From positions 1-59,358 of the forward strand of contig CAXUCZ010000001.1 of assembly GCA_964249675.1 (NCBI GenBank): a DNA stretch of 59,358 nucleotides, given 5' to 3'. The stretch is from an uncultured Acetobacteraceae bacterium. GTDB taxonomy: Bacteria; Pseudomonadota; Alphaproteobacteria; Acetobacterales; Acetobacteraceae. Positions 56 through 54,800 of the stretch are shown here, in pieces. How positions within the stretch are numbered: the stretch's first letter is position 1; the number at the start of each line of letters is the position of its first letter. Below the pieces are notes generated by a model, which made no database searches, was not told the DNA's origin, and saw only the letters and a program-made list of their open reading frames with translations. A program made the translations under genes and the position numbers.

Positions 56-851
56 CGCCTGCGACCGGCTGGAAGTTGAAGATGTCGGCGTTCCCGACGG
101 TAGTGCTGGAATTGAAATCCGACGCCGGGTTCGGTGCCGCCATGCTGACGTTCTCATAGTTCGCGGCGTCGCCGTTCGGCGTGAAGGTCACCTCGGCGTT
201 GCTGATCGGGCGCAGGCATTGCACGCGCACGTCGCCCAGAAATGTGTTCTGCGGGCTCGTGCCGGTGCCGTCGCAGAAATAGTAGTGCGTGGACCAGCAG
301 AACTCGTTGTTGCCCGAGCTGGGACCGTATTGCTGCACGGTGCCGTTGCCCTGACCCTGCGTGTTGATGCCGCTCAAGGTGAGCACTTCGCTGCCATTCA
401 CCAGCACGGTGACGCTGCCGGTGGTCTGGCCGACCGTGGCACCCACTTCGAGGTAGAACCAGCCGGTCGCTGGAAACACGCCTGCAAGCGATGCCCCCAG
501 CTCGTTGCCGCCGCTATCCGTGACGTAAATCTGTCCCCGGTTGACGCTGCAATGCACGGTGAAACAGAGATCTGCGTTCGGCGCGAGGAACCCCATCTGC
601 GCGCCCGAACCGTAATAGGCCCCCGCGCTGGCCGCGCAGTTTATCCGCGCCCCTGCAAAGAACGTCTTGACCGCGACCGGCAGCACTTTCTTGCTAGCTG
701 CCTGGGGGTTGTTCGCAAAATACGGCTCGTTCAGGAACGGGCTGTTGGCATCGTTCATGATCGTGCCGCTAAGCGACAGCCACGCCCCGGAACTGGTGTA
801 GTCGCTGGGATTGGTGGAGAGCCCGAAGCTCTCGCAGTCGAGTAGTGCCAT
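1..851 (-). CDS. virion structural protein (tail/fibre module), 5' part of a junction-spanning gene; continues 59303..59120
   Basis: Hand translation: ATG 851..849 (MALLDCESFGLSTNPSDY...), ATGA-coupled to 851..1498. No stop down to base 1. Frame joins ORF 59120..59356 through the overlap (345 codons). Missing from the ORF track because it runs off the edge. Confidence 0.8.
   Translation of the reverse strand, partial: MALLDCESFGLSTNPSDYTSSGAWLSLSGTIMNDANSPFLNEPYFANNPQAASKKVLPVAVKTFFAGARINCAASAGAYYGSGAQMGFLAPNADLCFTVHCSVNRGQIYVTDSGGNELGASLAGVFPATGWFYLEVGATVGQTTGSVTVLVNGSEVLTLSGINTQGQGNGTVQQYGPSSGNNEFCWSTHYYFCDGTGTSPQNTFLGDVRVQCLRPISNAEVTFTPNGDAANYENVSMAAPNPASDFNSSTTVGNADIFNFQPVAGGLISIMGVAVKAVATKSD
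93..105 (-). repeat. class II element CACTACCGTCGGG (exact)
   Basis: The + strand reads cccgacggtagtg. Sense to the gene, encodes T-T-V-G (ACT ACC GTC GGG). Confidence 0.9.
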
Positions 852-1498
852 CAGCGGGTTCCTACCAGGGTGACGTAGATCTCGGCGAGCGCCGCGTCGC
901 CCGAGCTGACCCAGCGCATCAGGTCGCCGAGCTGGAACGACAGCGGCTGGTTGCCGGCGGTGGTAAAGCTGCCGACCGCACCGGCAAAGGACATTGTGCC
1001 GGCGGGCTGCCAGTTGGCATCCTGGGTCGGGTCCGACCCGGAAGCGCAGCGCTGGATCGAGAAGCTGGGCGTGCCGCTGGCCGCAACGAAGGCACCGGCC
1101 TCGCTGACCAGCCCCGAGCTGATCGCACCGAACCCCGCCGGGAACCCCACTACCGTCGGGAACCGATGGCCGAACACCACGCCCTGGGGCGCTGCCGGCA
1201 GGAAGGCGGTCAGCACGTAGGGGTTGACCACGGCAGCCGTCGTGCCGGACTGGGAGGACCCCGAGCCGCTGGCAGTCTGACCGAACGTGGTCGCAGTCGG
1301 ACTGGTCACACCGGCGACCAGCTTGAGGTTGACCAGGTCGTCGAACGTCACCGCGCGCTGCGTCGTGCTGCCGCGGTTGCCGGCCAGGCTGTCCAGCCCC
1401 TGCTTGAGGCGCGACACCACCGAGACCAGCGACTGCAGGTTCGCGACCGGCTGCTCGGTCTGCGGGACGTTGGCGTTGCGCGACGGGATGCTAGACAC
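851..1498 (-). CDS. virion structural protein (tail-associated), function unknown
   Basis: 215-aa ORF, GTG start, overlaps upstream and downstream genes in an operon-like chain. Natural-looking composition. Confidence 0.75.
   Translation of the reverse strand: MSSIPSRNANVPQTEQPVANLQSLVSVVSRLKQGLDSLAGNRGSTTQRAVTFDDLVNLKLVAGVTSPTATTFGQTASGSGSSQSGTTAAVVNPYVLTAFLPAAPQGVVFGHRFPTVVGFPAGFGAISSGLVSEAGAFVAASGTPSFSIQRCASGSDPTQDANWQPAGTMSFAGAVGSFTTAGNQPLSFQLGDLMRWVSSGDAALAEIYVTLVGTR
1148..1160 (+). repeat. class II element CACTACCGTCGGG (exact)
   Basis: Antisense to gene 851..1498, where it encodes P-T-V-V. Shares the 16-mer CACTACCGTCGGGAAC with copy 93..105 in inverted orientation. Confidence 0.9.
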
Positions 1499-3269: not shown

Positions 3270-3454
3270 TACGGCTCACCTCGCTGAGCAGAGCCCCAGG
3301 TCACGGTCGTCAAGCCGATACCGCCACCCCAGACCGGCTCCTTGGTCACTACCGTAGTGGATGTCGATGACGGATACAGCATCGGAATGGCCGGCTGCAC
3401 CTGCGGCAGCAAAGCGTTCAGCAGCGTGCCAACCGGAGCGAGCAAGCCGCTCAT
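3269..3454 (-). CDS. small hypothetical protein
   Basis: 61-aa ORF, ATGA-coupled to 3451..4305 and TAATG-coupled to 1491..3269. Confidence 0.55.
   Translation of the reverse strand: MSGLLAPVGTLLNALLPQVQPAIPMLYPSSTSTTVVTKEPVWGGGIGLTTVTWGSAQRGEP
3347..3359. promoter_or_regulatory. fully palindromic copy CACTACCGTAGTG inside the small ORF
   Basis: ggtCACTACCGTAGTGgat. Encodes T-T-V-V on the - strand. Confidence 0.7.
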
Positions 3455-4309: not shown

Positions 4310-5437
4310 CTAGCTCGCAGGCATCAGGCCGATGGCGAGCCACTGGAAGCCGATCGGGCCGTAGGGCTCGCCGCTCAAGCCGCCATAGGTCTTGGCGGTG
4401 AACCCGTCCGCGGTGACGTTGGTGGGGATCACGTAGCCGCCATCTGCACCGGCTGCGGACCCGGTGCTGCCACCTGGCGTGGCCATGACGGTGGGCGTGA
4501 TCGCGCCGTCGAACGGGATCGGGAAGGTGACGCTGACCACGCCCGAGCCCTGGGTGACACCCGAGCCCCACTGGAATTGCATCCCGGTGGGAAAGTTCTG
4601 GTTGTTGCGCCCGCCCGAGACATCGCCCTGGTCCACCACCAGGTTGCCGTTCAGGTGCAGCGTCTTGGTGGCGGTGTCGTTGTTGACGATGATGTTGGAG
4701 AAAGTGCCGTTGCCATCGACGATTTCGTTGCCGCCGATATGCACGTTGCCCGAGACGGACTGGTCACCGGTGATGACCGAGGCCAGGCTGGCGGTGAGCT
4801 GACCGTTCGAGGGTGTCCAGGCACCCGAGACGAAGGTGAATAGCTGGTCCTGGACCGTGTCGTAGTAGAGCGTGCCCGCCAGCACCGGCGTGATGTTGTC
4901 GCTCATGAACTGCGGTGCGACCGCGAACGCGCCGAGATACACCCCACCCGTGGTGGACGCTGCGGTGACGATGGCCACCCAGGCAAGCCCAGACCACTGG
5001 AACAGCTTGTTCTGTGCGGTGTCGAAATAGAGGTTGCCGTAGATCAGGTTGCCGCCCGACGGTAGTGAGGCTGGCGGAGTGGCGAACGCGCCCAGATAAA
5101 GCGGCGCGGTGGTTGGCACACCGGCGGCGATCTCGGTCAGGCTGCCTGCGGTCAGGCGATGGCTCAGCACCGTGCCGGTCGGCCAGGCCAGCGCCCGCGT
5201 GCCCTCCTGCGCGCGCAGCACCGTCATCTGGTTGCCTACGCGCGAGGTGACCCGCACGATCTCGCGCTGCGGCGGCGACGCTGCCATGTTCTCCAGGGTC
5301 AGCATGAAGCTGTCGCTGGCCAGCACCGGCTGCGGAAACAGCTCGGCATCGAGAGCCGCGCAGAAGATCGTCACCGCCTGCGTGGTGATGGCGCCCAGCA
5401 GCGCCGAGCGGGCGTTGTCGGTGAATAGCAGGCTCAT
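4310..5437 (-). CDS. tail fibre protein
   Basis: 375 aa. Two copies of a fibre-type repeat (LYFDTAQNKLFQWSGLAW / LYYDTVQDQLFTFVSGAW). ATGA coupling. Confidence 0.7.
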   Translation of the reverse strand: MSLLFTDNARSALLGAITTQAVTIFCAALDAELFPQPVLASDSFMLTLENMAASPPQREIVRVTSRVGNQMTVLRAQEGTRALAWPTGTVLSHRLTAGSLTEIAAGVPTTAPLYLGAFATPPASLPSGGNLIYGNLYFDTAQNKLFQWSGLAWVAIVTAASTTGGVYLGAFAVAPQFMSDNITPVLAGTLYYDTVQDQLFTFVSGAWTPSNGQLTASLASVITGDQSVSGNVHIGGNEIVDGNGTFSNIIVNNDTATKTLHLNGNLVVDQGDVSGGRNNQNFPTGMQFQWGSGVTQGSGVVSVTFPIPFDGAITPTVMATPGGSTGSAAGADGGYVIPTNVTADGFTAKTYGGLSGEPYGPIGFQWLAIGLMPAS

Positions 5438-8436: not shown

Positions 8437-9504
8437 TTACCGAACGCGTCCCTCGGTTGTCGCCGCGATGATATCCCGCTCGAGGCGCAGCTTTTCAGCC
8501 TCGCGCCCGGCATAGGCACCACGGTTCACATCCCGATAGAACGCAGTGATCTCTGGTGGCGACCAGAGCCTCGCTTCTCTCGGAGCGCCGTTGCTGCCCT
8601 GGCCGGTGGCCCTGCCGGGAGCTGCCATGCTTTCCAGTGTGGGCCTGCCCGCCCCGGCATCCGGGGTATGAGCAGGCTGGCGCTGGGGCTGGCCGGTGAC
8701 GGTATGCTCGGCGATGAAGGCGTTGAAGAATGCAGCCGTCCGGGCTGCATCGCCATTCCTGTAGGCGACCCCGAGCATGTCGTGACGGACCTGCCCGGAG
8801 AAGGGATCGACCTGACGAAGCCAATCCAGGAACTCAGGCTCGTTATTGACAGTGCGCCAATTCGGAACCTGCTGATCCAATACTCGCTCAACGTTCTGTT
8901 GTGCAACAGAACTTTGTGCCCGCTGCGCATTTTGTTGCACACTGGCAACCTGCGTGCGCAGCTCCTCAAGCTCGCCGGATACCTCGGCGCGCGCCCAGCG
9001 TCGGGCCGCGTCGATCAGTTCGGAACCGAACGCCTCGGTATCCTCTTTCGGAACCTCGACCTGCTTGCGCGCGGCGGGTGCCGGCGTCGGCTCGGGCTTC
9101 GGCTGCGACTGAAGGTTTGCCAAGATGGTGTTGAGCGACTGCACCTGCGACGACAGCTCGCGAACCTGCCGGTTCAGCGCCGGCACCTCGGCGTTGTATT
9201 TGCCCTGCAGCGTGTCGTGACGCTGCTTCCAGATCGCGTCGTCCACCACCGGCTCGGACTTCGGCTCGACCACCTGGGTCGGCTGGCCGGGCTCGAGCTG
9301 CACTTCGGTGCCACCCTCGGGCGGCTTCCCGACGGTAGTGGCATCGGCTTGTGCGCGCAGGTCGCGCTGGAGCTGTTCCGACCGCTCGGCCTGCCGGCGC
9401 ACGCTGTCCGGCACGAAGTTGTTGAAGTCGGCGACCGGCGCCTCGGGAGGTGCGGGCGCAGATGCGGGTGCAGGCGCCTCGGCGACGGGCGCTGTGCCGC
9501 TCAC
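8437..9504 (-). CDS. scaffolding protein
   Basis: 355 aa, A/E/Q/R-rich coiled-coil-like, between portal and capsid genes. GTGA coupling. Confidence 0.65.
   Translation of the reverse strand: MSGTAPVAEAPAPASAPAPPEAPVADFNNFVPDSVRRQAERSEQLQRDLRAQADATTVGKPPEGGTEVQLEPGQPTQVVEPKSEPVVDDAIWKQRHDTLQGKYNAEVPALNRQVRELSSQVQSLNTILANLQSQPKPEPTPAPAARKQVEVPKEDTEAFGSELIDAARRWARAEVSGELEELRTQVASVQQNAQRAQSSVAQQNVERVLDQQVPNWRTVNNEPEFLDWLRQVDPFSGQVRHDMLGVAYRNGDAARTAAFFNAFIAEHTVTGQPQRQPAHTPDAGAGRPTLESMAAPGRATGQGSNGAPREARLWSPPEITAFYRDVNRGAYAGREAEKLRLERDIIAATTEGRVR
9328..9340 (-). repeat. class II element CACTACCGTCGGG (exact)
   Basis: Sense to the scaffold gene, encodes T-T-V-G. Confidence 0.9.
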
Positions 9505-12693: not shown

Positions 12694-13218
12694 ATGATGA
12701 GTGCTGCAGTCAGCCAGGACGTCTCCGACACGGCGATCGACGCTCTGGTCGACCAGACCCCGACGGTAGTGAAGTTCGACCCCGACGACGAGGTCGCCCT
12801 GCAGCTCATCAACGACGTCGCCGTGCAGATCCAGAGCTACGACACGATCGCCGCGCGGTTCGGGCTGAGCAAGCCGCAGCTCTATGCGTGGATCAAGCAG
12901 CCCGAGGTGCTGCGCCGGATCAAGGCGCGCCGTGCGCAGTGGCAGGCGGACGGCAATGTCGCCGAGCGCAACCGCACGCTGTATGGCCACATCACCATGG
13001 ATGCGGCGCCGGTGCTCGACCGCATCCTGCACGACCCGCAATCGACGGCCAGCGCCAAGCTCGAGGCGTTCAAGATCGCCGGTCGGTTTGCCGGCCTCGA
13101 GGCGCAGCCCAAGGGCCAGGCCGAGAGCGGCCCCGGCAACAGCTTCGCGGTGAACATCATGTTCAGCGGCGGGCGCGTCGAGCGCATCACCCCGATCCTG
13201 GAAGGCACGCCGGAATGA
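12694..13218 (+). CDS. terminase small subunit (candidate)
   Basis: ATG 12694 (MMSAAVSQ...), 174 aa. HTH-like segment (TIAARFGLSKPQLYAWI). Upstream of TerL. Confidence 0.5.
   Translation: MMSAAVSQDVSDTAIDALVDQTPTVVKFDPDDEVALQLINDVAVQIQSYDTIAARFGLSKPQLYAWIKQPEVLRRIKARRAQWQADGNVAERNRTLYGHITMDAAPVLDRILHDPQSTASAKLEAFKIAGRFAGLEAQPKGQAESGPGNSFAVNIMFSGGRVERITPILEGTPE
12759..12771 (-). repeat. class II element CACTACCGTCGGG (exact)
   Basis: Antisense inside terS, which reads P-T-V-V there. Confidence 0.9.
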
Positions 13219-16461: not shown

Positions 16462-16661
16462 AGTTCGCGCCGCGGAGCCAGCCAGTCCCGGCCATAGCGC
16501 TTCCTCACCAGCCGCTCGCGGCGTGCCTGGGTGTTCTTGAACCACCGCGCCAGCAGCGCCCAGATCACGCACACCACCAGGGCTGCCAGCACCCAGCATC
16601 CCGCAAGCGTCAGTCCCGCCAGCTCGAGCCAGTCCACGTTCGCCCCCTCGTCCCAGTTCAT
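16458..16661 (-). CDS. small membrane protein
   Basis: 67 aa. TM segment LTLAGCWVLAALVVCVIWALLA. Confidence 0.55.
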   Translation of the reverse strand: MNWDEGANVDWLELAGLTLAGCWVLAALVVCVIWALLARWFKNTQARRERLVRKRYGRDWLAPRREL

Positions 16662-17346: not shown

Positions 17347-17360
17347 ATAATACGTATTAT
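17347..17360. promoter_or_regulatory. perfect 14-bp AT palindrome ATAATACGTATTAT
   Basis: Overlaps the stop of the Tad2-like gene, just upstream of the MTase start. Contains TATAAT/TATTAT-like hexamers on both strands. Confidence 0.4.
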
Positions 17361-17692: not shown

Positions 17693-17968
17693 TTAATGCC
17701 GGCTGCCGGGGTCGATCTCCGACGTCACGCTATCGCCCCCACGGTCCAGGCACACCGCTGCCGCCTGATACCCGGTCTGCATGGTGACGGAGGCACACAC
17801 CTCCGCCATGTGATGCAGGCAGTTCTCGCAGCCACACCAGAAGATGCCGAAGTGCTCGAGCATGAACTCCCGACCGTCGGGATGCCGCAGCACGATGACG
17901 AAGCCCTGGCCTACCGGATCCATCCACGGGATCTCGGGCAGCTCTGCCGGCGGCGTCACCGCGTTCAT
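17693..17968 (-). CDS. hypothetical Cys/His-containing protein
   Basis: 91 aa with a WCGCENCLHH cluster. Confidence 0.55.
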   Translation of the reverse strand: MNAVTPPAELPEIPWMDPVGQGFVIVLRHPDGREFMLEHFGIFWCGCENCLHHMAEVCASVTMQTGYQAAAVCLDRGGDSVTSEIDPGSRH

Positions 17969-20945: not shown

Positions 20946-20961
20946 CACTACCGTAGTGATT
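20946..20961 (-). promoter_or_regulatory. class I element AATCACTACGGTAGTG
   Basis: 42 nt upstream of ATG 20903. Divergent partner of 21106..21121. Confidence 0.75.
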
Positions 20962-21105: not shown

Positions 21106-21121
21106 AATCACTACCGTCGTG
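21106..21121 (+). promoter_or_regulatory. element variant AATCACTACCGTCGTG
   Basis: Heads the ORF-poor leader 21122..21382. Confidence 0.65.
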
Positions 21122-21629: not shown

Positions 21630-21645
21630 AATCACTACAGTAGGG
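21630..21645 (+). promoter_or_regulatory. class I element AATCACTACAGTAGGG
   Basis: 12 nt upstream of ATG 21658. Confidence 0.8.
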
Positions 21646-21657
21646 AATACCAACATC

Positions 21658-23503: not shown

Positions 23504-23512
23504 TAAATCATC

Positions 23513-24931: not shown

Positions 24932-26101
24932 ATGGATCTCACTTCCGCCAAGCGCGTCATGCTGCGCACCCACGTCGCGGCGCTGCACGGTGCCCATCGT
25001 GCCAACGCGATCGAGATGGTCGCCGGTCCCGGCATCGGCAAGTCCGACAGCGTGCGCCAGTCATGCGCCGAGCTGGCTGCGTTCATCAACGAGCCGGTCG
25101 GTCTCGTGACTTTCATGCTGGCCACCGTGTCGAGCGTCGACATCCGCGGCTTCATGCTGCCGATCAAGAACGCATCCGGCGGCATGGACAGTCACTTCAG
25201 CGTGCCGCCGTGGTATCCCACGCGGGCCAACGTCACCGTGTTCACGCCCGACGGCACCACCCACCACATGGGCAGCTTCACCGGCGACGTGCCGCGTGTC
25301 GGCGTGCTGTTCCTCGACGAGTTCGCGCAGGCCGAGGACGACGTCAAGAAGCCTGCCGCCGAGCTGCTGCTGCATGGCTGCGTCGGCACCACCAGCCTGC
25401 CCGTCGGCTGGCGCGTGCTCGCAGCGTCCAACCGCATGTCGGATCGCTCCGGTGTCATGCGTGCGATGGCGTTCATCACCAACCGGCGCAACGAGATCAA
25501 GGTCGATGCGTCACTACCGTCGTGGATATCCTGGGCCAACGCGCAGCCCGACGCGACGCGTCCGCACTATCTGACACTGTCGTTCGCGCAGAAGAACCCT
25601 GGGCTCGTGTTCCGCGACGCCGTGCCGCCCGGCTCGGATCCGTTCTGCACGCCGCGCACGCTGTGCCTGCTCGATGCCGACCTCAAGGCGTTGCGCAGCC
25701 CCGAGGAAACTGCTGCTGATCGCATGCCGACCGATGCGATCGCGCGCGAGGTGGCGCGTGGCTGGATCGGCGAGGGCGAGGCGGCGCAGTTCTTCACGCA
25801 TATAAAATATGCCGACGAGCTGCCCGAGATCGACGACCTGGTCGCGGCACCGACCAAGGCCAAGCTGCCGCCCAACAAAGATGCGCAGATGGTCTGCGGC
25901 TACATGCTGGCGCACCACGTCAACGACAAGACTGCCGGTCCGATCATGCAGTATCTCGGTCGCCTGCACATCGAGATGCAGGTGCTCGCGGTCAACGCGA
26001 TCATGTCGCACAAGCCGACGCCGCGCGCCGTGCTCGAGCACCCGCTGTTCAAGGCGTGGCTGATCGCCAACAAGGATCTGCTCATGGCCTCGCGGTCGTG
26101 A
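24932..26101 (+). CDS. MoxR/CbbQ-type AAA+ ATPase
   Basis: Walker A GPGIGKSD, Walker B VLFLDEF. 389 aa. Confidence 0.75.
   Translation: MDLTSAKRVMLRTHVAALHGAHRANAIEMVAGPGIGKSDSVRQSCAELAAFINEPVGLVTFMLATVSSVDIRGFMLPIKNASGGMDSHFSVPPWYPTRANVTVFTPDGTTHHMGSFTGDVPRVGVLFLDEFAQAEDDVKKPAAELLLHGCVGTTSLPVGWRVLAASNRMSDRSGVMRAMAFITNRRNEIKVDASLPSWISWANAQPDATRPHYLTLSFAQKNPGLVFRDAVPPGSDPFCTPRTLCLLDADLKALRSPEETAADRMPTDAIAREVARGWIGEGEAAQFFTHIKYADELPEIDDLVAAPTKAKLPPNKDAQMVCGYMLAHHVNDKTAGPIMQYLGRLHIEMQVLAVNAIMSHKPTPRAVLEHPLFKAWLIANKDLLMASRS
25512..25524 (+). repeat. coding variant CACTACCGTCGTG
   Basis: Sense in the ATPase gene (TCA CTA CCG TCG TGG = S-L-P-S-W). TAG here would be an in-frame stop. Confidence 0.8.
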
Positions 26102-32243: not shown

Positions 32244-32259
32244 CCCGACGGTAGTGATC
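32244..32259 (-). promoter_or_regulatory. reversed intergenic copy GATCACTACCGTCGGG
   Basis: Between polA and the nuclease gene, pointing against both. Immediately followed by GCCGAATGATC. Confidence 0.6.
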
Positions 32260-36172: not shown

Positions 36173-36655
36173 ATGAGTGTTTCCACTACCGTCGGGCAAA
36201 CCAGCATGGCCGACGCCATGTCGGCGCAACCCATCAACCACACGCCGCCGGCCTTCCGGGTCCGACCGGCTGGTCTGACCGTCGAGAAAGCAGTCGCCAA
36301 GTATGTCGAGCTGCGCGACAAGGTTGCGGCAATCAAGAAGCAGCAGGTCGAAGCGCTCGCGCCGTTCAACGCCGCAATGAGTGTGCTCGAGAACTGGATG
36401 CTGGACGATCTCAATCAATCCGGTGCAGAAAGTATGCGGACTACCGCAGGCACCTGCTACAAGGCGAAGCGGACTACGGCGAAGGTCCACGCCTGGAGCG
36501 AGACGTTGCAATTCATCCTCGAGAAACAAGCCTACGAGCTGCTGGAAGCCAGGGTATCCAAGACAGCGGCGCAGGCTATACTGGAGGAGACGGGGCAACC
36601 GGTCCCTGGAGTCGCTATAGAGACCGAAACCACAGTGAACGTGCGCCGCGCGTAG
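36173..36655 (+). CDS. hypothetical coiled-coil protein (recombination/replication accessory?)
   Basis: 160-aa ORF. A class II element sits in codons 4-8. Confidence 0.65.
   Translation: MSVSTTVGQTSMADAMSAQPINHTPPAFRVRPAGLTVEKAVAKYVELRDKVAAIKKQQVEALAPFNAAMSVLENWMLDDLNQSGAESMRTTAGTCYKAKRTTAKVHAWSETLQFILEKQAYELLEARVSKTAAQAILEETGQPVPGVAIETETTVNVRRA
36184..36196 (+). repeat. class II element CACTACCGTCGGG (exact)
   Basis: Sense, encodes T-T-V-G, 9 nt after the ATG. Confidence 0.9.
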
Positions 36656-36704: not shown

Positions 36705-37817
36705 ATGTCGAATAACGTAGTGCCGCTTCGCTCGGGTCAGATGCCAGCCGCCTTCGCCGGTCGCAACCTGCCCGACATGGGCCGGGCAATGACCGAGAAC
36801 GTGCAGGCTGGCTTCGCGGTCGTCGGCTACAAGGGCCGCACCTGGCGCATCAAGCACGGCGGCGCCGACACCGTGATCATGGGCGACAACCGCCAGCCGA
36901 TCGGCTCGCTCGAGGTGGTGATCGTAGGCGTCAGCCCGAACATCTCGAAGAACTTCTACGAGAAGCGCTACGCCGAGGGCGACGCGGAGTCGCCGGACTG
37001 CTGGTCGGTCAACGGCAGGACGCCAGACCCCGCCAGCCCCAAGCTGCAATGCGAGACCTGCGCGGCCTGTCCGCAGAACGTGTTCGGTTCGCGTGTCACC
37101 GAGGCCGGCAAGAAGGCCAAGGCTTGCCAGGACTACCGGCGCATCGCCGTGGTGCCCAAGGGCGACCCGAACAACGAGACCTATGGCGGGCCGATGATGC
37201 TGCGCATCCCGCCGATGTCGCTCGCCAACCTCGCGCGCTACGGCCAGGAGCTGACCCGCTACGGTGCCCAGCCCTATGCTGTCGGCACCCGCCTGTCGTT
37301 CGACTACGACGTGGCCTACCCGCTGATCACCCTGGAGGCGACCGGCTGGCTCGACGACGAGACCGCAGTCGAGGTGGCGCCGATCCTCGACGACCCGCAG
37401 ATCGAACGCATGCTCGAGCAGGCCCCGCCCGAGGGTCCCGACTCCGAGGCACCGCCGGCCCAGGCATCGGCGCTGGCCGGCGGCAAGCCGTCCCAGGCCT
37501 TGGCCAAGCCGGCACCGGCGCAGCAGGTCCAGGCGCAGCCCGCGGCCCAGGCGCAACCCCAGGCCGAGCAGGCACCGGTCGAGCAGGTGGCAGCCGCCAG
37601 TCCGACCGCCAGTCCGTCCAGTGTGACCAAGCCGCAGAAGCCGGCGACGGGAGCGGCCTTCGGATCCCGGCCTGCCCAGGCTCAGGTGACCCAGGCGCAG
37701 CCGGCTGCCCAGGCTCAGGTGACCCAGGCGCAGCCCCAGCGACAGGAGGTCCCGACGGTCGTGGCTGCGGCGCCGGATGATATGCAGGCGGCGATCGACG
37801 AGCTGCTGAACGCCTGA
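36705..37817 (+). CDS. ssDNA-binding protein candidate
   Basis: Position just before the primase-helicase. Q/A/P-rich linker and acidic tail (DDMQAAIDELLNA). Confidence 0.45.
   Translation: MSNNVVPLRSGQMPAAFAGRNLPDMGRAMTENVQAGFAVVGYKGRTWRIKHGGADTVIMGDNRQPIGSLEVVIVGVSPNISKNFYEKRYAEGDAESPDCWSVNGRTPDPASPKLQCETCAACPQNVFGSRVTEAGKKAKACQDYRRIAVVPKGDPNNETYGGPMMLRIPPMSLANLARYGQELTRYGAQPYAVGTRLSFDYDVAYPLITLEATGWLDDETAVEVAPILDDPQIERMLEQAPPEGPDSEAPPAQASALAGGKPSQALAKPAPAQQVQAQPAAQAQPQAEQAPVEQVAAASPTASPSSVTKPQKPATGAAFGSRPAQAQVTQAQPAAQAQVTQAQPQRQEVPTVVAAAPDDMQAAIDELLNA
37672..37737 (+). repeat. 33-bp tandem repeat, 2 copies
   Basis: CTGCCCAGGCTCAGGTGACCCAGGCGCAGCC.. repeated, encoding AQAQVTQAQP twice. 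Confidence 0.85.
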
Positions 37818-41497: not shown

Positions 41498-41513
41498 CCC
41501 GACCGTCGTGATC
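41498..41513 (-). promoter_or_regulatory. degenerate element GATCACGACGGTCGGG
   Basis: 7 nt upstream of ATG 41490. Overlaps the HNH gene stop. Confidence 0.45.
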
Positions 41514-41772
41514 ATTTGCTGTTGTGCTTGCGACGGTTGGCCGTCGGCGAGAGCACGCCGATATTGCTCGGATGGTTTGACCCGCCTTTAGACAGGCTCT
41601 TGCGATGGTCTATTTCACGAGGGTCGTTCTTGCCCTTGAGCTTGCCGTCCTTGATCGCCTGCGTGCGTGCCTGGTCGCGCTGCACGCGCTTCTTCTTGCC
41701 GGCTTCGGACTTCTCGCGCGCCAGGTAGTAAGCACGGTTCTTCTGGTAGTCGAGCGGATCGTCGCTGCTCAT
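41512..41772 (-). CDS. mini HNH endonuclease-like protein
   Basis: ATGA-coupled ATG 41772. EIDHRKSLSKGGSNHPSNIGVLSPTANRRK fits the H-N-N pattern. Confidence 0.55.
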   Translation of the reverse strand: MSSDDPLDYQKNRAYYLAREKSEAGKKKRVQRDQARTQAIKDGKLKGKNDPREIDHRKSLSKGGSNHPSNIGVLSPTANRRKHNSK

Positions 41773-47500: not shown

Positions 47501-50500
47501 GGCCCAGCAGCGGTTTCCCGACGGTAGTGGCCGCACGGAACAGCGGCTCGGCGTGCTGGCGCAGCACCGGGTCGGACGGCGCCAGGGCGTCCATCGAGCG
47601 GTTCAGTCTGACCGCGCTGTCGGTCACGTCCTGCAGCGGGTGCAAAATATGGTCGAGCAGGCTGGTCTCGCTGGCGCTGCCGGACGGACCCAGTCCGACC
47701 GCACGTCGGACCCAGTCCGTGAAGTGCCGCCAGACCGAGGTGCCCGCCGGGCGCTGGCCAAAGCCCAGCTCGGCAAGGCGTGCGCGAAGCTGGTCGCTGG
47801 CCGGCAGGCTGGCTGCCAGCTCCTGCAGCCTGGCACCCGACATCAGGCCGGTATGCAGCTCGTGGATATCGCTCAGCGCATAGCCGAGATCGCGCCCGGT
47901 CTGGCTGGCCTGGAACTCGCGCCCCGCCGTGTTGTAGTGCCGGGACAGCTCCTCCATGATCGCCTGCAGCGCCTGCGCCTGCGGGTTCGACCGGTCCAGC
48001 TTCTCGAGCATGGTGATGTGGTCGGCGGTGACCGAGTGCAGGCCCTCATGCAGCAGGGTCTCGACCATCGAAGCCGGACGCGACGGATTGTTGTGCAGGA
48101 TGATATGCGCGCCGCCGCCCGACGTCGGGTTGTATGACCCGTAGGTATCGCCGCTGGCGTAGTCCTCGTCGTATTCCTTCTGCGACAGCAGTCCGTGGTC
48201 GAGCGCGCTGTCCTGGCTGTGCACCTCGATATCGGGTGCCACCTTGAGCAGGTGATCGGCGAGTGCCGCCATCGGGCGCATGCTCGACTTGATCCGCGCG
48301 TTGTTCGCGATCAGGCGATACAGTTCGTGCGCGGAGCTGGGACGATTGCGGTTCAGCTCGTTGTCGGCGAGCCGGGACGACACCACGGAATTAATGCGCG
48401 GGTCGGCCAGCGCCCGCACATATTCCGACTGCCCGCCGGCGCCGCCAGGCTCCACGTCGCGACGGTAGAGCGGACGCGAGATGCGCTCCGAGCCACTACT
48501 GTCGGCAGATGTCTCACCGCGTCCCTGGCGCTCCAGCTCGCGACGCGCCTCGTAGCCGACCGGGTCGCTGGTGCGATCCTCGACGGCCTGGTCGAGGCGG
48601 TCCTTGAGGTCGCGCAGCCGGTCCAGGTGCTCGGGATCCACCTCGGCCATGACCCGGTCGACGCGGCGGGTGAGTGCGGACATCGCCTGCGTGGTAGGCG
48701 GCTTCAGCGGCTTCTCGCCAGGCTTGAGCGCGCGCCGGGACTGTTCGCGCGCCGCCTGCATGTCGGCCAGCCGGTCGGCCTGCTCGCTCAGCACCTCGCG
48801 CTCGCGGGCCGGCGCGGTGTCGATCTGCTTCTGGATATAGTCGGACAGGTTCTTGTAGGCGCGCGGCCTGCCATCCTCCGACGCATCGCCGAACTCGTCG
48901 TGCGCCTCGGCAAGATCGAGATCGGCGTGGTCGCTCAGCAGGCGACGCATCAGGTTCGCGCCGATCTTGGCGGTGTTGGTGACGGACGCCGCGACCGAGC
49001 TTTCTTCCCTGGGCGCAGTGCCGTAGTCCTGCGTCACCTGGGTGCTGGGGCCGTCCTCGCCGCCAGCCTCCTCGCCCAGCTCGCCGGCGCGCTCGTCCTC
49101 GGTCTGCTCGCGATGCGCCTGGCCGCGCGCCTCGTCGGCATCGTAGCGCGAGCCGCCCTCGGCCAGCTTGTCGGACGCGTTGGCGCGGGCTTCCTCGGCG
49201 GCATCCACCACGCGGGTATCCTGGGTGTCGGCATGCAGCTCGGCCTCGCGCGGCGACATCGCCGGCTCGTCGAGCCCCTTGCCGCGCAGGAGCTGCATCA
49301 CGGTCTGCCCGGCATCGCCGAACTTCACACGCGAGCCGGGGATGTTCTTGCCGGCGTTGCTCTTAAAGAACTCAGCCAGCGCGTCGTGCGCCTCGCTCTC
49401 GCTCGGGCTGTCGCGCACCGCGCCGAGCGCTGCCTGTTTGAGGCTGTCGTGCAGCGCAGGCGGCAGGCCGGCCACGCGTGCCGCGCGCGAGGATGCGTCG
49501 ATGATGTCCTGGCGGACTTCCTGCGGGTTGCGCCCCTCGGTGCCGGCCTCGAGCCCCTTGCCCTCGTCCCCGACGGTGACGACCGTGCCCTTCATGCGTG
49601 CGCCGGGCGGTGCCCACTTCGCCTTGCCGGCGGCGCGCTTGGCGGCTGCCTGGGCGCGCAGGGTGTCGGCGACGGTGAGCGGCTTGGCAGCGGGCGCAGA
49701 TGCCGCCGGTGCGCCTGGCTCACTACGGTCGGGCAGCACGGGCGATGGAGCCGCCCTCTCCTGCGCCGGGAGCGAGCCAGCATCAGGAGAGGACGTCCCA
49801 CCCAGACTACCACCCGCGACAGGTGCGTCCAGTTCTCTTGGGGAGCCCGGCGTTTCTACTACGCTAGTGTTTGGTGCGGTAGCGTCTTGCACCGCTTCCG
49901 GCTGCGGCATGGTCACCGCGGTCGGCTCCTGCGGTGCCATCGGCGACAGCTCGCCGGGCGGACGGTCCACGCCAGCGGGTTCGCTTGGCGCGACAGGCGC
50001 AGGTGGTGGCGGCGGTGCGTTGTCGGGATGCAGCGGCGATAGCGGGCTCGGCGCCCCCTCGCCCGCCGGTGCGCTCGGCGCCTGCGGCGTCGGCATCCCT
50101 TCGGGCACGGCAGGCGCAGGCGCAGGCGCAGGTGCAGGTGTCGACTCGGGTGTCTGCGGCGTTGCTGCCGGGTTCTGCTTGGCCAGCAGCGCGTCGTGCT
50201 GGGCTTTGAGATCCACAAGCTTGAGCCCGGCCACGTCCTTGCGTGCCGCCCCGCCATCCACCAGGGCGTTGATGAAATCCTTGCGGGTCACCGGGGCCGG
50301 CTTCGGTGCCGGCGGTGTGGGCTCTGGCGGGGTGGTGCCCAGTCCCTCGGCCAGTGCCGCGTGCAGATCGGGTGCGACCGGCGCAGTGCTGTTCGGGCCG
50401 TTCTCCGCGGTCGGCACGGCAGGGGTCGCAGCCGGCGCCGTCGCCGCGTCGGTCGGCGCCTTCATCGCAGCGGCAGCCTGCGGGTCGACCGGCTTGGATG

Positions 50501-51821
50501 TGACCGGGTCCGACGCGCCTACGGGAGCCTTGGTCGGATCGAGCGTCTGACCGGTCGGACTGGCCGTGTCGATCGGCTTGTCCTCGCCGGCCTCGGTCTG
50601 GATGTCGCCGTGCGCGCCGCCATGCAGCACGCCGCCCGCACCACCCAGCACCGCGCCACCGATCGCGCCGCCCGCGACCGCCCTGGCCAGTGCCTCGGGA
50701 TCGAACTTCGACTGCGTGCCCAGCGTCTCGTTCTGCGACTGCTGGATGGCGTCGTCGGCGCCCGACTGGGCACCCATGGTGGCAGCGCCCTCGCCGCCGC
50801 CGATCAGCGCACGGATCGCGGTGCCGGCGCCGTCAGCGACACCCGCCGCACCCTTGCCGAGCAGGCCACCGACACCGACCGCACCCGCCGCACCGGCGAT
50901 GTAGTGTCCGAGCATCGGCATCGCGAGCGAGCCCACGATCGACCTCTTGGCGTCGTCCACCGACATGCCGGTCTCGCGCAGATGCGCGTAGGCCGGGCTC
51001 TGCATCATCGTCTTGTCGGAGGCGTTGTCGACCTGGTTGACGGTCTCGTTGTAGGCGGCACCCGCGTCCTGCATGCCGCCGACCTGCGCGGTCGTGACGA
51101 GCCCGGCCACCTTGGCGACGGTCGCGGCGGTGTCGGCTGCCAGCCCGACCTTGCTCGCGATACCGAGCGCCACCTTGCCAGCAAGGCCACCCGGCAGCAC
51201 CATCGTCGCTGCGGTCGGCAGCAGGTTGACAAGCGCCGTCGCCGCGTAGCGGGCGTAGCCGGCCTGGGCGACCGACGGCGCGTTCGGGTCCGAGCCGTCG
51301 CTGAACAGCGAGGCGTGGAACGCCTTCTGCTGCGCGGCGCTCATGTCGCCGATCTGGTTCTCGATGTGGCCCTGCAGGTTCGCCTTGGCCTGCTCGAGGA
51401 AGCGCACCGAGATCGGGTCCGCAGTCAGCTTGCGATCGACCAGCGACGCGGCGCCGACGATGTCCTGAACGCTGCCGAGGGCTGCCGCATTGAAGGTATG
51501 CAGCGCATCCGACGCCCAGCTCGACTTGGGGGTCGGTGCCGGCGGGGCTGGTGGCGGCGTGAAGCCGAAGCTCTGCCCGGCCTGCGGGTCCTCGAACTGG
51601 TTCTGGTCGATCGTCCCGCCGGTCGGGATCGCCTGCTGCGGCTGCTGGTAGGGGTCGGGCGTATTGGCGTAGGGGCTCGGCTGCTGCGAAAGCTGCTGCG
51701 GCGTCGGCGTGTCAGCCTGCGCCATCGGCAGGCCCTGCTGGGGCTGGCTCGGGCCAGCACCCATCATCCGGTCCTCGTATTCCTCCTGGTCTGCCTGGTC
51801 GGACGCAGCGCTTCCCGACAT
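44583..51821 (-). CDS. giant internal virion / DNA-ejection protein with zincin HExxH motif
   Basis: 2412-aa uninterrupted ORF after the SLT protein. HEGLH at 48037..48051. Q/P/A-rich low-complexity N-terminal third. Confidence 0.75.
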   Translation of the reverse strand: MSGSAASDQADQEEYEDRMMGAGPSQPQQGLPMAQADTPTPQQLSQQPSPYANTPDPYQQPQQAIPTGGTIDQNQFEDPQAGQSFGFTPPPAPPAPTPKSSWASDALHTFNAAALGSVQDIVGAASLVDRKLTADPISVRFLEQAKANLQGHIENQIGDMSAAQQKAFHASLFSDGSDPNAPSVAQAGYARYAATALVNLLPTAATMVLPGGLAGKVALGIASKVGLAADTAATVAKVAGLVTTAQVGGMQDAGAAYNETVNQVDNASDKTMMQSPAYAHLRETGMSVDDAKRSIVGSLAMPMLGHYIAGAAGAVGVGGLLGKGAAGVADGAGTAIRALIGGGEGAATMGAQSGADDAIQQSQNETLGTQSKFDPEALARAVAGGAIGGAVLGGAGGVLHGGAHGDIQTEAGEDKPIDTASPTGQTLDPTKAPVGASDPVTSKPVDPQAAAAMKAPTDAATAPAATPAVPTAENGPNSTAPVAPDLHAALAEGLGTTPPEPTPPAPKPAPVTRKDFINALVDGGAARKDVAGLKLVDLKAQHDALLAKQNPAATPQTPESTPAPAPAPAPAVPEGMPTPQAPSAPAGEGAPSPLSPLHPDNAPPPPPAPVAPSEPAGVDRPPGELSPMAPQEPTAVTMPQPEAVQDATAPNTSVVETPGSPRELDAPVAGGSLGGTSSPDAGSLPAQERAAPSPVLPDRSEPGAPAASAPAAKPLTVADTLRAQAAAKRAAGKAKWAPPGARMKGTVVTVGDEGKGLEAGTEGRNPQEVRQDIIDASSRAARVAGLPPALHDSLKQAALGAVRDSPSESEAHDALAEFFKSNAGKNIPGSRVKFGDAGQTVMQLLRGKGLDEPAMSPREAELHADTQDTRVVDAAEEARANASDKLAEGGSRYDADEARGQAHREQTEDERAGELGEEAGGEDGPSTQVTQDYGTAPREESSVAASVTNTAKIGANLMRRLLSDHADLDLAEAHDEFGDASEDGRPRAYKNLSDYIQKQIDTAPAREREVLSEQADRLADMQAAREQSRRALKPGEKPLKPPTTQAMSALTRRVDRVMAEVDPEHLDRLRDLKDRLDQAVEDRTSDPVGYEARRELERQGRGETSADSSGSERISRPLYRRDVEPGGAGGQSEYVRALADPRINSVVSSRLADNELNRNRPSSAHELYRLIANNARIKSSMRPMAALADHLLKVAPDIEVHSQDSALDHGLLSQKEYDEDYASGDTYGSYNPTSGGGAHIILHNNPSRPASMVETLLHEGLHSVTADHITMLEKLDRSNPQAQALQAIMEELSRHYNTAGREFQASQTGRDLGYALSDIHELHTGLMSGARLQELAASLPASDQLRARLAELGFGQRPAGTSVWRHFTDWVRRAVGLGPSGSASETSLLDHILHPLQDVTDSAVRLNRSMDALAPSDPVLRQHAEPLFRAATTVGKPLLGRALDLVDRPGIGDRVREAALASQDLDNMVDRNRELMGRHVTTDAGSTDPDKGLVLKVANPLEYFRQTTEAIQNSSNAYDRQFRDRVGTLGQRLAGRDDLGQLMVDATIGKTNLGEANPHLTDPDAIKASEALQARFAGLSKADRDTVKGAQALYTESYRAQRDAYLKGMIGNFLPDATPEQVKALSQVTRSKTTLDEFIRTGDDATLARAFSQGWEDSRSIAQGIAKVQRMGFVEGGYFPLRRFGDYTIRYGDPDNLETYGMERFEKRGDADARYAELKAQGVEGLSTVQLRNEGKLGDLTGKSDLVNRTVMAIAKKHGDEQAEQAREMMQKVMLEYATKSEAAVAKRRGVKGASIDQSRVMAQEHLSASSRVGYAEHSAARQSALSMMRLVAEDLGRRGSSDDTVRAQQVYRELVKRSAANEDLGGAMAALARRATSFSFTQSLMSPSHMVTSSIESHTNASALLGARHGYTRATLALSKAMADVTPRLAGKGLTHSLAGLGGRLKQADWDLSKHAQQQFVRAGAKADHMKTLFDQLDRANLIDHTMVRETQRLANPSGAIRSTLGKSWQRFSDFNAAGAHAVDVANKSAIAKATFDLELRRNGGDVDRAATVATDTLRRATPNYNFSNKARIATSAGPLKQFAGPLMQFKNYGIHQYGMMANLVRASMQGATKAERWEARKAFAGVLATHAAMAGTLTLLADPLRLIGGAYDWATSAKSPHDYENSVRGWMSDTFGPELGQVIARGLPEAAGIDIHRRVGLSNMLELPDINTFDAKGYTTALMQIMSGATAENFGNEAAGVSKLLQGDPSGFQLVVPRPIRDMMKAANLATTGVTNSKTGQVELPASQISTGSVIAQGLGFQPSRVSEFREGHYAVQEAMQEAQQARSGLTQKFLQADPADRTDVWAEIQQYNAQNPTAPIQYQSLLRALNQRMVVARQAAANPGSFGVRLPRGDTSALTSAGRFANVGG
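47517..47529 (-). repeat. class II element CACTACCGTCGGG (exact)
   Basis: Sense in the giant gene, encodes T-T-V-G. Confidence 0.9.
49722..49734 (+). repeat. class II variant CACTACGGTCGGG
   Basis: Antisense in the giant gene (P-D-R-S). Confidence 0.85.
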
Positions 51822-54800
51822 CAGTTCATCGCCATCGTGGTGGGCGCGTTCTGCTGCGGGATCGCCGAACTCTGCGGCGTGCCCATCAGCGGGTTCGGGT
51901 TGCCCGCGGTTGCCTGCCCTGCCCCGATGCCCTGGGTCGGACGCGCGGTCTGACCGGCCTGGTTACGGGACTGACCATACAGGCTCTCACCCAGCGACGA
52001 CGGGATGTAGGCATGCACGAAACCTGTCTTGGGATCGGCGATGCCGTAGCGTCCCTGGCTGTCGCGCGTCACCTGGAGCTGACCCTTGGCGACGCCCATC
52101 GCCAGGAAGTTGGCGTGCGGCGGCGACATCGCGCCCGCCTGGGCATTGACGCGCAGGCCGGTGAATACCTGGGCGGCGATCGAGCGCGCCTGGTCGACGT
52201 TGGCCGGCGCCTGCCCGGTGACCGGGTCGCGGAACTGGTCGGTCTTGGAGCCCGCGGTATAGTAGTTGGTGGCGTCGCTCTCGGTCTGCCGGGCGAAGCC
52301 GTCGCTCTCCTTCCTGCCCTGCTCGGCCCTGAGCTGCGCTGCTTCCCGGCGCTGCTCGGTAGCGGCAGCGGCCTGCTGGCCGCGCTCGGCGACTGCCTCG
52401 TGTGCCGCCGTTGCGCGCTCGGCGATGTTGTCCTCGACGCCTTGCTGGCGGATGCCGGCAGCCTGGATGCGCTCCTGGTCCAGCCCGCCATAGTATTTCG
52501 CGCGCGCCGCGTTCAGCGCCATGCTCGAGACGTGCTGCTGCTGGGCGTTGACCATCTCGAGGTATTTGTTCGGGTCCGAGGTGGTGATCATCATTTGCTG
52601 GATGCCCTGCTGGGTCACCTGGAACGGTGGCGCCAGCGCCCGGCTCGGGTCGTTCTCGTCGAGCTGCTGCGCCCACAGGTTGCCCGAGGCGTCGGTGCCG
52701 AACCGGCCCACACTACCGTCGGGGAAGAACGCGTGCGCCTTCGCCAGCATCTGGGCGGCACCCGCCATGTTGCCGGCTCCGAACGCCTGGCTCGCCGCCT
52801 GCAGGCTCTGCGTCGCACCCTGCTGGGACATCTGCGTCACCAGGTCGCGCGCCTGACCGACGCCTGCATAGTCGTGGCGCGCGATGGCGGCGACGATCAT
52901 CGAGGTCTCGGCCCGACGCCAGCTATCGGTCATGTTCATGCCCTGCGGGCTGGTGCTGACCATGTATTTCACGAACTGGTCAGGACCCTGCTGGGCTGCC
53001 TGCATCAAGCCTGGGCCGTTGTTGCCGCCACCCGGCGTGAACTTGCCCTGCAGCGGGTCGGACTTGTCATCGACGCTGTCCGAGAGACCCGGCACACGCG
53101 GGTTCACGTCGAGCTTCGAGCGCGTCGGATCGCCCGGCGAGAACTGGTTGCCGTCCGGGTCGTCGGTGATGTTCAGCGCCTTGCGCACGTAGGCCATCGT
53201 CTTGGGGAACTTGCCCTCGGCGTTGCCATAGTCGGTCGCGATGGCATGGACGTTGGCCGGTCCCGCCGTGTAGGCGGCGATCGACGAGACGCTGTTGCGC
53301 CCGAACTCGCGGTCGTTGAGGTTGATGTAGCGCGCACCCAGGCGCAGCGAGCCCTCCATCGTAGAGCCGTCGATCTGGCCACGCGGATCCAGATACTTCT
53401 GGGTGGCCGGCTCGACCTGCATGATGCCCTTGGCACCGGTCTGGCTGTCGGGTGCGCTGTCGTGCAACCCGCTTTCCAGATACCAGTGCAGGGCGAGGCG
53501 GGTCGGGTCGACATCCTCCTCGCCGGCGACCTTCATCACCAGGTTGTAGGCGCCCGGTGCCTGCTGCTTCAGCGCCTCGAGTGGACGTGGGTCGATGGTC
53601 GGCTTGACCACTGCGGGGGTCGGCTCGGACTGCACGGTCGGACTGGTCTGTCCTGGTGCGACCGGTGCGGCGGACGCGGGGATCACGACGGCAGCCGAGC
53701 CCGCCTGCGGGTCCGGCGTCTGGGTCTGCGCCGCCTTCAGCGCGCCGGGGTTGGCGGCACCGGCGTTGACCGCCTTCGCGACCGGGCTGGCCGGGTTGAC
53801 GGCGGGTGCCGCCGCCGGGATCGCCTGCGCAGCCGGGCTGACGGCGGGCGACGTGCCCGTGTTCGGCCCGCCCTTGGGCTCGGCAGCGGCAGCGGACGGG
53901 TTCAACGCCGACATGATCGACGCACCGATGCCGCCACCCTGCGCCGGGGCCGCGGTGGTGCCGGTTGCCATCGGGCCGAGCGGCGCCGCGTTGGGCTGAG
54001 CCGACGCGGTCTGCCCGACAGAGACGGCAGGACCGGTGCTCTGCTGCGCCGTGCGGCCTTGCTGCGAAGCCATCTGCGGCTGCGGCTGGCCGGGCTGGTT
54101 GGGCGACATCGGCGGGATCGCTGGCTGCGCGGACTGTCCCGACGGTAGGGCACCGGGCGGCGGGGTCTGTCCCTGCGGGTCAGGCGCATAGCCGCCGTCG
54201 CTCGAGACCATGCCCTGCGGCGTGCTGGTGTTGGCCTGGTTGACCGCTGCCTGCTGCTGGCTCTGCTGCATGCCAGCCCCGTAGCCGTTGCCGCCGACCG
54301 CGCTGGCAGGCGGGGGTGCGGTCGGCGCTGGCTGGGCGTTGCTGGCCGGGATCGGCGAGCCCTGCATGCCGGGGGTCTGTGTCCCAAAGCCAGGGCGGGC
54401 GCCGCCGGTATAGGCACCGGGAATGCTGGTGCTGGCCTGCATCGCCGGGCTGTTCGGCACCAGCGCCGGGTTGGCAGTGCCCGACGGGGCGACCGGACGC
54501 ACGGGCGGCGGGGCCGAGGTGGGCGCAGGCGCGGACGGCGAGACCGAGGAGACCGGCGTGATGCCGAGCCCGCCGGTGGACGGTGCCGACGGGGCGGCAG
54601 GCGGGGTCGCGCCGAAGCCCGCGGTGTCGCTGGGCACGCTGATCTTGGACGGGTCGGCGAGGCGGGTCGGCGCCTTGCTCGAGCTGGACGCCTGGCTGGT
54701 GGTGTTGTTGGACGGATACTGCACCGTGGTGTCAGTAGAGTCCGTGCCGGCGTAGCCGCCGCCACCTTCCGCCGAGGAGCCGTAGGCGTCGTTGATGTCG

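Follow-up and report, generated by a model that had tools for sequence, protein, structure and literature searches.

DNA words that recur throughout a phage genome and are read by the phage's own protein are known from few cultivated groups, as stoperators, start-associated sequences, and nick motifs, and two of these three are without known function. The L5-type repressor of mycobacteriophages binds the Cluster A stoperators as a monomer; these are a set of more than 20 asymmetric 13-mers located at promoters and elsewhere in the genome (PMC9283540). Cluster K phages carry the start-associated sequence (SAS) and the extended start-associated sequence (ESAS), asymmetric 13-bp words found in one orientation a few bases ahead of the start codon in a subset of non-structural genes, with inverted repeats associated (PMC3203893). 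The nick motifs of T5, phiKMV-like, and tf/LUZ24-like phages (TACTRTGMC and CGACN5CCTACTCCGG) occur in 4 to 14 copies, many of them inside genes and all on one strand. The promoters of N4 and the T7 group are phage-specific words of ~13 to 20 bp, deployed per transcription unit, with a GGG(A) 3' end and rapid divergence between phages. Here, we analyze a repeated 13-mer, CACTACCGTCGGG, in a stretch of 59,358 nucleotides (contig CAXUCZ010000001.1 of GenBank assembly GCA_964249675.1, from an uncultured Acetobacteraceae bacterium), which we refer to as the window and which its predicted gene content identifies as a podophage.

As a kind, a phage-specific, genome-wide word is thus already known. 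What is undescribed is the combination of a gene-start form with a coding-embedded form, together with indifference to orientation, inversion in place, and a series from palindromic to asymmetric words across one clade. The words themselves are absent from a full-text literature search. The two ends of the window are identical over 55 nt (1-55 = 59304-59358), indicating a circularly closed assembly of 59,303 bp, and its G+C content is 66%. One gene on the minus strand, the junction gene, runs from 851 to 1 and on from 59303 to 59120 and encodes ~345 aa.

DNA-level selection on an exact 13-mer

CACTACCGTCGGG is the commonest 13-mer in the window and occurs in nine exact copies, six on the minus strand and three on the plus strand, which interleave around the circle in the order - + - - - - + - +. 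A first-pass annotation of the same DNA had reported eight copies, all with exact coordinates and strands, and had overlooked the one at 5055-5067(-). Genes were called with a codon-usage model, and by these calls, which are our own, seven of the nine copies (93, 1148, 5055, 9328, 12759, 47517, and 52711) lie inside genes. The nine copies are as follows.

93..105, minus strand: sense in the junction gene, read ACT ACC GTC GGG
1148..1160, plus strand: antisense in a 215-aa gene at 851-1498(-), read CCG ACG GTA GTG
5055..5067, minus strand: sense in a 375-aa gp53-like fiber gene at 4310-5437(-), read CTA CCG TCG; without a counterpart in the closest relative, L003
9328..9340, minus strand: sense in the variable linker of a scaffold-like gene at 8437-9504(-), 164 nt into the gene, read ACT ACC GTC GGG
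12759..12771, minus strand: antisense in the 5' end of a helix-turn-helix (HTH), small-terminase-like gene at 12694-13218(+), read CCG ACG GTA GTG; directed at the leftward portal/late operon, with a gene-start copy of the related word 98 nt further on at 12648
32244..32256, minus strand: intergenic, in a 48-nt spacer after the DNA polymerase gene, opposite to the flanking plus-strand genes
36184..36196, plus strand: 5' end of a ~155-aa gene, read ACT ACC GTC GGG; codons 4 to 8 if the start is at 36173, or 9 nt upstream of the in-frame ATG at 36206
47517..47529, minus strand: sense in the gene of a 2412-aa giant virion protein at 44583-51821(-), read ACT ACC GTC GGG
52711..52723, plus strand: antisense in a 1069-aa transglycosylase-containing gene at 51821-55030(-), read CCC GAC GGT AGT GTG

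CACTACCGTCGGG is under DNA-level selection, and its recurrence is neither due to chance nor driven by peptides. No copy was found in 100 dinucleotide shuffles of the window. Among 300 genomes in which synonymous codons were shuffled within each gene, with proteins and codon usage kept and intergenic DNA untouched, the mean was 2.02 copies and the maximum 3, against nine observed. Only the two copies outside our gene calls persist in these shuffles, and the expectation for the seven coding copies is near 0. Codon-shuffled controls had been named in the first-pass annotation as a check on its proposal, and the disappearance of the coding copies in them favors selection at the nucleotide level.

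The word is read in three frames and on both strands. It yields the peptide TTVG where it is read as ACT ACC GTC GGG (93, 9328, 36184, and 47517) and PTVV where it is read in antisense as CCG ACG GTA GTG (1148 and 12759). The statement that sense copies always encode TTVG is therefore correct for four copies and fails at 5055, with its reading CTA CCG TCG. The rarity of the codons was well noted, as ACT accounts for 4.3% of Thr codons and GTA for 3.2% of Val codons, and the word further imposes CTA (2.3% of Leu codons) and AGT (3.8% of Ser codons). Every instance of TTVG or PTVV in the proteome is encoded, with rare codons, by a word of the family described below; these two peptides are by-products of the word.

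The reading phase of the coding copies is also nonuniform. Motif positions 4, 7, 10, and 13, the variable ones, fall on third codon positions in seven of the nine copies, the phase that accommodates the word most easily, and in these seven the third-position C at position 10 (G on the other strand) gives the preferred codon. The A-to-C change at position 10 that separates the word from its intergenic form was likewise correctly described as synonymous toward a preferred codon, which is the case in seven of nine copies, and it averts a TAG in one. This phase preference supports the coding copies as additional occupancy sites of the same system, and such sites would come about through synonymous substitutions in linkers rich in Thr/Val/Gly/Pro, the kind of linker in which the copies are located.

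The closest relative, L003, is a contig of the NCBI metagenome assembly GCA_020064025.1, with a capsid protein 92% identical to that of the window and DNA ~75% identical over the shared 21 kb. These 21 kb contain six exact copies of CACTACCGTCGGG on mixed strands. Copy 12759 is the sole exactly orthologous one (L003 5636-5648), and its flanks have diverged. In the scaffold gene, L003 carries the word inverted in the same slot, with an overlap of 11 of 13 alignment columns, and the peptide there is ATTVG in the window versus NPDGSE in L003. The L003 copy in the 215-aa gene is ~35 nt away from the position of copy 1148 and flipped, and copy 93 aligns with CACTACGGTAGG-A in L003, where TTVG is kept with other rare codons. 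In the spacer just after the large-terminase gene, the window has CACTACGGTAGGG (GTAGGG) and L003 has CACTACCGTCGGG (GTCGGG). These alignments show a word that is conserved while its copies turn over locally, that is free in orientation at coding sites, and that has two exchangeable forms. For the L003 phage, no replication module was found, and the best relative of the window's DNA polymerase is only 62% identical.

Relatives had been proposed in the first pass as a further check, and in them the word is kept where the peptide differs, at the scaffold, 215-aa, and 370-aa genes. The codon-shuffle null, the use of three frames and both strands, and the inverted scaffold copy of L003 together bear out the first-pass view that selection acts on the nucleotide word rather than the peptide. 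All 13 positions, the central C included, are invariant over 15 copies (nine in the window and six in L003), which overturns the idea that only the left half is constrained. The central base is variable in the intergenic form, and coding pressure does not explain the C found in all nine exact copies and the six L003 copies (binomial p = 0.004, window). Beyond the 13-mer, the flanks are unconserved in these 15 copies except for a favored A at +1 (9 of 15). The 13-mer has no folding of its own (z = 0.19), suggesting that it is read as duplex DNA and disfavoring an RNA or cruciform role of the coding copies.

One word family in two contexts

The 13-mer belongs to one family with a gene-start word. 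The pattern C[AC]C[TG]AC-N-GT[AC]G[GT]G matches 34 positions of the window, versus 0.3 matches expected under a third-order Markov null with both strands counted, or about 0.15 expected positions. The family consists of 11 copies of CACTAC-N-GTAGGG, three palindromes of the form CACTAC-N-GTAGTG, and 20 copies with GTC at positions 8 to 10. GTA forms are intergenic in 13 of 14 cases and GTC forms are coding in 16 of 20 (Fisher p = 6e-5). The 11 CACTAC-N-GTAGGG copies, ten of them intergenic and one in the last codons of the muramidase gene, usually have CAAT just before them. All 11 are oriented toward the downstream gene, most end 1 to 15 nt before an ATG, and some gene-start copies follow terminator-like hairpins, as at 26143 and in the more distant relative L001. 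The coding GTC copies show no orientation preference (~7 sense versus 8 antisense). The division into a coding and an intergenic form drawn by the first-pass annotation thus survives as a statistical association. The two forms are not cleanly separate, since they swap at orthologous sites of the window and L003, and both L003 and L001 place GTCGGG forms at promoter-like intergenic positions. The remaining members that we located individually are as follows; the variants listed in the first pass exist, with 49722 corrected to 49721-49733.

7444(-), 15326(+), 21633(+), 23491(+), 23769(+), 24302(+), 26143(+), 26595(+), 29525(+), 43903(-), and 56924(-): the 11 gene-start copies (CAAT)CACTAC-N-GTAGGG, with 21633..21645 as the representative
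20946..20958, no strand: perfect palindrome CACTACCGTAGTG in the divergent early control region
3347-3359 and 24884-24896: two more perfect palindromes CACTAC-N-GTAGTG
17869..17881, no strand: perfect palindrome CCCGACCGTCGGG, with both halves of the GTC type, inside the gene at 17693-17968(-)
49721..49733, plus strand: one-mismatch variant CACTACGGTCGGG with central G, antisense in the giant gene
37751..37763, minus strand: variant CACGACCGTCGGG, antisense in a 370-aa gene and 54 nt ahead of its stop codon
55972-55984(+) and 41498-41510(-): other copies of the CACGAC-S-GTCGGG type
25512..25524, plus strand: variant CACTACCGTCGTG within an ATPase gene
21109(+) and 39420(-): copies of the CACTACCGTCGTG type, intergenic and in the primase-helicase gene, respectively
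31191-31203, plus strand: copy of the CACTACCGTCGTG type with central G, CACTACGGTCGTG, in the SLRSW codons of the DNA polymerase gene

Four family copies in inverted orientation cluster at 36.2-39.4 kb around the primase-helicase gene. Copy 31191 may be kept by the protein rather than as a DNA signal, because SLRSW is conserved in the 62%-identical polymerase of the locus L213 (L213 1197-1209(+)).

Three further features lie beside family copies. The genes behind the gene-start copies at 21633-21660, 23491-23515, and 23769-23793 begin with ATCATCATG and have no Shine-Dalgarno sequence, and CATCCCCATG is found at eight gene starts of L001, which suggests an unusual, conserved translation-initiation context at these gene starts. 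Directly downstream of copy 21109(+), in the divergent early control region, ~260 nt (21121-21380) are hairpin-rich and without a credible open reading frame (ORF); this segment, which has no Rfam or tRNA match, could be a phage non-coding RNA. Just upstream of variant 37751, tandem repeats of 31 to 48 nt (37510-37735) encode the QAQP-rich, low-complexity tail of the 370-aa protein.

We collected ~90 loci around the capsid gene of more distant relatives. Many of them have their own repeated palindrome on a (C/G)TAC-N-GTA(G/C)-like core, including the following words.

L124: GGCACTACSGTAGTGCC, four copies, all inside genes
L122 and L211: CCCTACTGTAGGG
L133: TTACGACWGTCGTAA
L144: CACTAGCTAGTG
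L145: TTACTACSGTAGTAA
L154 and L160: CACTACSGTAGTG
L005 and L123: TTTACTACSGTCGTAAA
L001 and L129: CCCTACNNGT(A/C)GGGAA

In L001, the A and C forms, CCCTACNNGTAGGG and CCCTACNNGTCGGG, lie between terminator-like hairpins and ribosome-binding sites, and the L129 palindrome after the capsid gene folds (-11.4 kcal/mol, z = -4.3). The words recur at common landmarks, which are upstream of the portal gene, in the scaffold linker, in the spacer after the capsid gene, and before a ~590-aa tail gene. The scaffold-linker landmark, ~0.93 kb before the capsid gene, is occupied in the window, L003, L122, L124, L133, L145, L160, and L212. A histogram of palindrome positions has a modest peak at -1000 to -900 (11 of 48 loci, over a baseline of ~5), indicating that this landmark is recurrent and not universal. 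An automatic search for words common to the scaffold linker and the post-capsid spacer in 51 loci returned mostly noise, and a scan of IMG/VR for CACTACCGTCGGGA gave only single, chance-level matches among the 80 of 115 contigs listed.

L213, the locus related to the window in the replication module, has the family word CCCTACAGTCGGG where the ~155-aa gene begins, the landmark of copy 36184, on the other strand and with TTVG retained. It also has CACTACGGTCGGG in the ~370-aa gene, 54 nt from the stop codon as for variant 37751, on the same strand and in a different frame.

Two of these relatives show additional repeats. L005 and L123 share a second, unrelated repeated word, ATACCGGGTTGTGAACYYGGTT (L123 542-553 and 9054-9065; L005 333-344, 3963-3974, and 9026-9037), one copy of which lies in the scaffold-gene linker exactly at the place of CACTACCGTCGGG in the window. 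The IMG/VR contig L001 begins (1-40) with four tandem copies of a 9-nt unit, GAACGGCAC, which may be a genome end or an assembly artifact.

A proposed protein-docking word and its alternatives

The explanation that we tentatively prefer, at somewhat short of an even chance, is that CACTACCGTCGGG is a DNA word for protein docking, providing extra binding sites that modulate transcription. Judged from sequence, it is the GC-rich, coding-compatible form of the lineage's quasi-palindromic control word CACTAC-N-GT(A/C)GGG, and it would be read on double-stranded DNA by a sequence-specific protein that the phage presumably specifies. This reader is probably an asymmetric binder, with two domains or as a heterodimer, derived from a homodimer that would read the perfect palindromes still present in relatives. 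As promoter or operator elements, the intergenic GTA copies would serve gene expression, to which the fixed orientation and spacing of the gene-start copies tie the family. The coding GTC copies may serve as extra occupancy sites at conserved landmarks along stretches without intergenic room, namely, the ~30-kb late operon, including the 7.2-kb giant gene, and the replication module. Bound protein would modulate transcription there through roadblock, pausing, silencing, or local re-entry. A word that changes while its positions stay, a palindromic form in most lineages as against an asymmetric one here, and an orientation that depends on context form the signature of a DNA-binding protein co-evolving with its sites. 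One protein that binds both CACTACCGTCGGG and CACTACCGTAGGG would support this explanation.

Cluster A stoperators resemble the family in being an asymmetric 13-bp word with more than 20 copies (here, 34 family positions), both at promoters and dispersed, and in that related phages have different words, each co-evolving with a single reader of duplex DNA (PMC9283540); the words of relatives differ here too. Several points weigh against a docking word of this kind. Known stoperators occupy short gaps between genes and function in only one orientation with respect to transcription, whereas most GTC copies here are intragenic and in either orientation: the gene-start copies are co-oriented in 11 of 11 cases, but the coding GTC copies divide ~7:8 and the scaffold copy is inverted in L003. 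Unlike Cluster A genomes, the window yielded no gp71-like protein, integrase, or lysogeny module in scans that leave many small ORFs without a match, and the relatives use true palindromes. The phage looks lytic, with neither integrase nor repressor found, so an immunity-type silencer is unexpected. A tolerant position 10 leaves the invariant central C and the avoidance of genes by GTA unexplained, and L124 keeps GTA inside genes. No reader protein emerged when essentially all predicted proteins were scanned with Pfam and PHROGs, which gave just the small-terminase-like HTH, a weak winged helix-turn-helix (wHTH; E = 0.04), and a weak HNH match. Among the small early ORFs, searched against Pfam at E up to 1, one weak wHTH was the only DNA-binding candidate. 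The same two databases revealed no RNA polymerase, sigma factor, ParB, or repressor domain and no integrase in the predicted proteins, many small ORFs being matchless.

It is rather unlikely, though still worth weighing, that the family is the promoter of an unrecognized phage RNA polymerase or specificity factor, with starts in GGG(A) and the coding copies as internal, in part antisense, cryptic promoters. Gene-start copies share the direction of the downstream gene without exception, some follow terminator-like hairpins, A is favored after GGG, and T7-group promoter cores, CACTA...TAGGGA, resemble the word. Between 19 and 37 kb, the sigma-70 consensus has three matches versus 3.8 expected, none of them at word sites, and a sigma-54 pattern is not above chance. 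Fast divergence of words among relatives is usual for polymerase-promoter pairs as well, the late-region copies 93, 5055, 9328, and 47517 are sense, with 12759 also directed along the late operon, and the relatives' palindromes with 1- to 4-nt centers recall the hairpin promoters of the N4 virion polymerase. Unlike in T7 and N4, however, no polymerase gene is detectable here (a novel fold being possible), the 13-mer forms no hairpin, and about half of the coding copies are antisense. Nor do the predicted proteins include an RNA polymerase or sigma domain, and the giant protein, unmatched by sequence in the PDB, has only two detectable homologs over its N-terminal 1500 aa, unlike a conserved enzyme. 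The inversion of the scaffold copy between the window and L003, the directionless perfect palindromes of relatives, and the distance of 280 to 2900 nt from the sense coding copies to the next gene start are equally hard to reconcile with promoters. A less probable account is that of nick sites, with one strand of the asymmetric word cut by a phage nickase and localized single-strand interruptions left in virion DNA, as in T5, phiKMV-like, and tf/LUZ24-like phages. Like the known nick motifs, CACTACCGTCGGG is an exact short word of about 10 copies, many in genes, with rare near-miss variants; a close relative has the same word at similar relative positions and distant relatives have another, as the known motifs also drift between subgroups. 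The pattern as a whole parallels tf and Rembedalsseter. The phiKMV nick word CCTACTCCGG is the only detectable intergenic motif of that phage and has no link to transcript abundance, and a later survey of RNA polymerases tabulates a word containing CCTACTCCGG as the phiKMV entry among phage polymerases and their sequences. An 86-aa ORF at 41512-41772(-), the last gene of the late operon, is a candidate nickase under this account, but its HNH endonuclease match is weak and below the Pfam threshold (E = 0.005). The described nick motifs are all one-stranded and without a tie to gene starts, whereas here six minus-strand and three plus-strand copies interleave, orientation flips in L003, and the word is interchangeable with gene-start copies whose fixed orientation and start-codon spacing indicate an expression function. 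In a broader version, which we regard as doubtful, the word would have been recruited from the gene-start motif and would mark, on both strands of the virion or replicating genome, site-specific interruptions of a single strand or some other strand-specific transaction, for example, the loading of a clamp or helicase.

A role as replication or packaging landmarks, with the word bound by the small terminase as at a pac site or by the DUF927 primase-helicase as at iterons, is improbable. The sole exactly orthologous copy does lie in the 5' end of the HTH small-terminase-like gene, a frequent place for pac sites, and the four inverted-orientation copies at 36.2-39.4 kb, where L213 keeps the landmarks 36184 and 37751, would suit replication. 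The genome-wide spread and the tie to ~14 gene starts are unlike a pac site or an origin, and the window has no tandem iteron array. We give hardly any credence to the view that the word acts at the RNA level, as a hairpin that governs processing, stability, or translation, or that it is a by-product of peptide conservation and codon usage. The palindromes of relatives fold, the post-capsid version of L129 especially, TTVG is retained in L003 (copy 93) and L213 (copy 36184), and SLRSW is conserved at 31191. The gene-start copies also occupy the position of a ribosome-binding site, and most intergenic GTAGGG copies, 1 to 15 nt from an ATG, match the placement of Cluster K start-associated sequences. 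Those sequences, however, have a Shine-Dalgarno core and are almost never inside genes or on the other strand, whereas seven of nine 13-mers are intragenic and the copies occupy both strands. The 13-mer itself shows no folding, four of nine copies are transcribed only as the complement, the peptides differ where the word is kept in the scaffold, 215-aa, and 370-aa genes, and the codon-shuffle null leaves ~0 coding copies. For the coding copies, this view is largely refuted, and its revival would need an RNA-binding protein that acts on both CACUACCGUCGGG and its complement.

Other kinds of signal were considered and rejected. ParB-bound, centromere-like parS sites, which are palindromic and often intragenic, were set aside as no ParB domain was found and the window's word is non-palindromic. 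Chi-like recombination signals are short (5 to 8 nt) and polar relative to DNA ends or replication, whereas this word has 13 nt and a strand order that cannot be divided into two arcs. The strand order likewise speaks against DNA entry driven by transcription in one direction, and the absence of folding speaks against a hairpin or cruciform.

Genes of the phage and meaning of the word

The structural genes of the window include an N4-gp56-type capsid protein, an SU10-type portal (a name borrowed from the annotation of the L003 ortholog), and GP4-like fiber parts. The gene of the 2412-aa giant protein is followed in genome order by lysis genes, the muramidase and an adjoining ORF, and the replication module comprises a family A DNA polymerase, a PD-(D/E)XK nuclease, an SNF2 helicase, and the DUF927 primase-helicase. 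Rfam searches of the whole window at the families' own score cut-offs gave no match, and a tRNA search of the window found none. A megablast search of 20 kb against isolated phages was without a match; the nearest isolates are Rhizobium phage RHph_TM27A and its relatives, with a capsid 59% and a polymerase 35% identical, and the word family is absent from RHph_TM27A. A search with the capsid protein found more than 7,000 metagenomic homologs, which points to a large, uncultivated clade of apparently soil-type podophages.

Conservation of the giant protein, encoded at 44583-51821(-), is confined to its C-terminal ~900 aa, and its N-terminal 1500 aa are almost without detectable homologs. Records of isolates label the matching region variously as a DarB-like antirestriction protein, an Snf2 helicase, a DNA methylase, or a PLxRFG protein. 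In the leftward early operon, a Tad2-like (anti-Thoeris) gene at 17357-17599(-), a DUF6378 gene at 18156-18464(-), and the gene of a SAM-dependent methyltransferase at 16658-17323(-) form what looks like an anti-defense cluster.

The recurrence of TTVG and PTVV is a warning for annotation, as short peptides that recur can reflect a signal in the DNA. The word would become highly interesting if nicks were found on both strands or if it proved to belong to new machinery for transcription. Should the word mark strand-specific interruptions, nicks and expression signals would share one reader, linking the long-unexplained localized nicks of phages to transcriptional control. With its graded words and landmark copies that are free to invert, this clade offers a natural system for the co-evolution of DNA-binding specificity and sites, and it shows how regulatory DNA can be written into coding sequence through synonymous positions.

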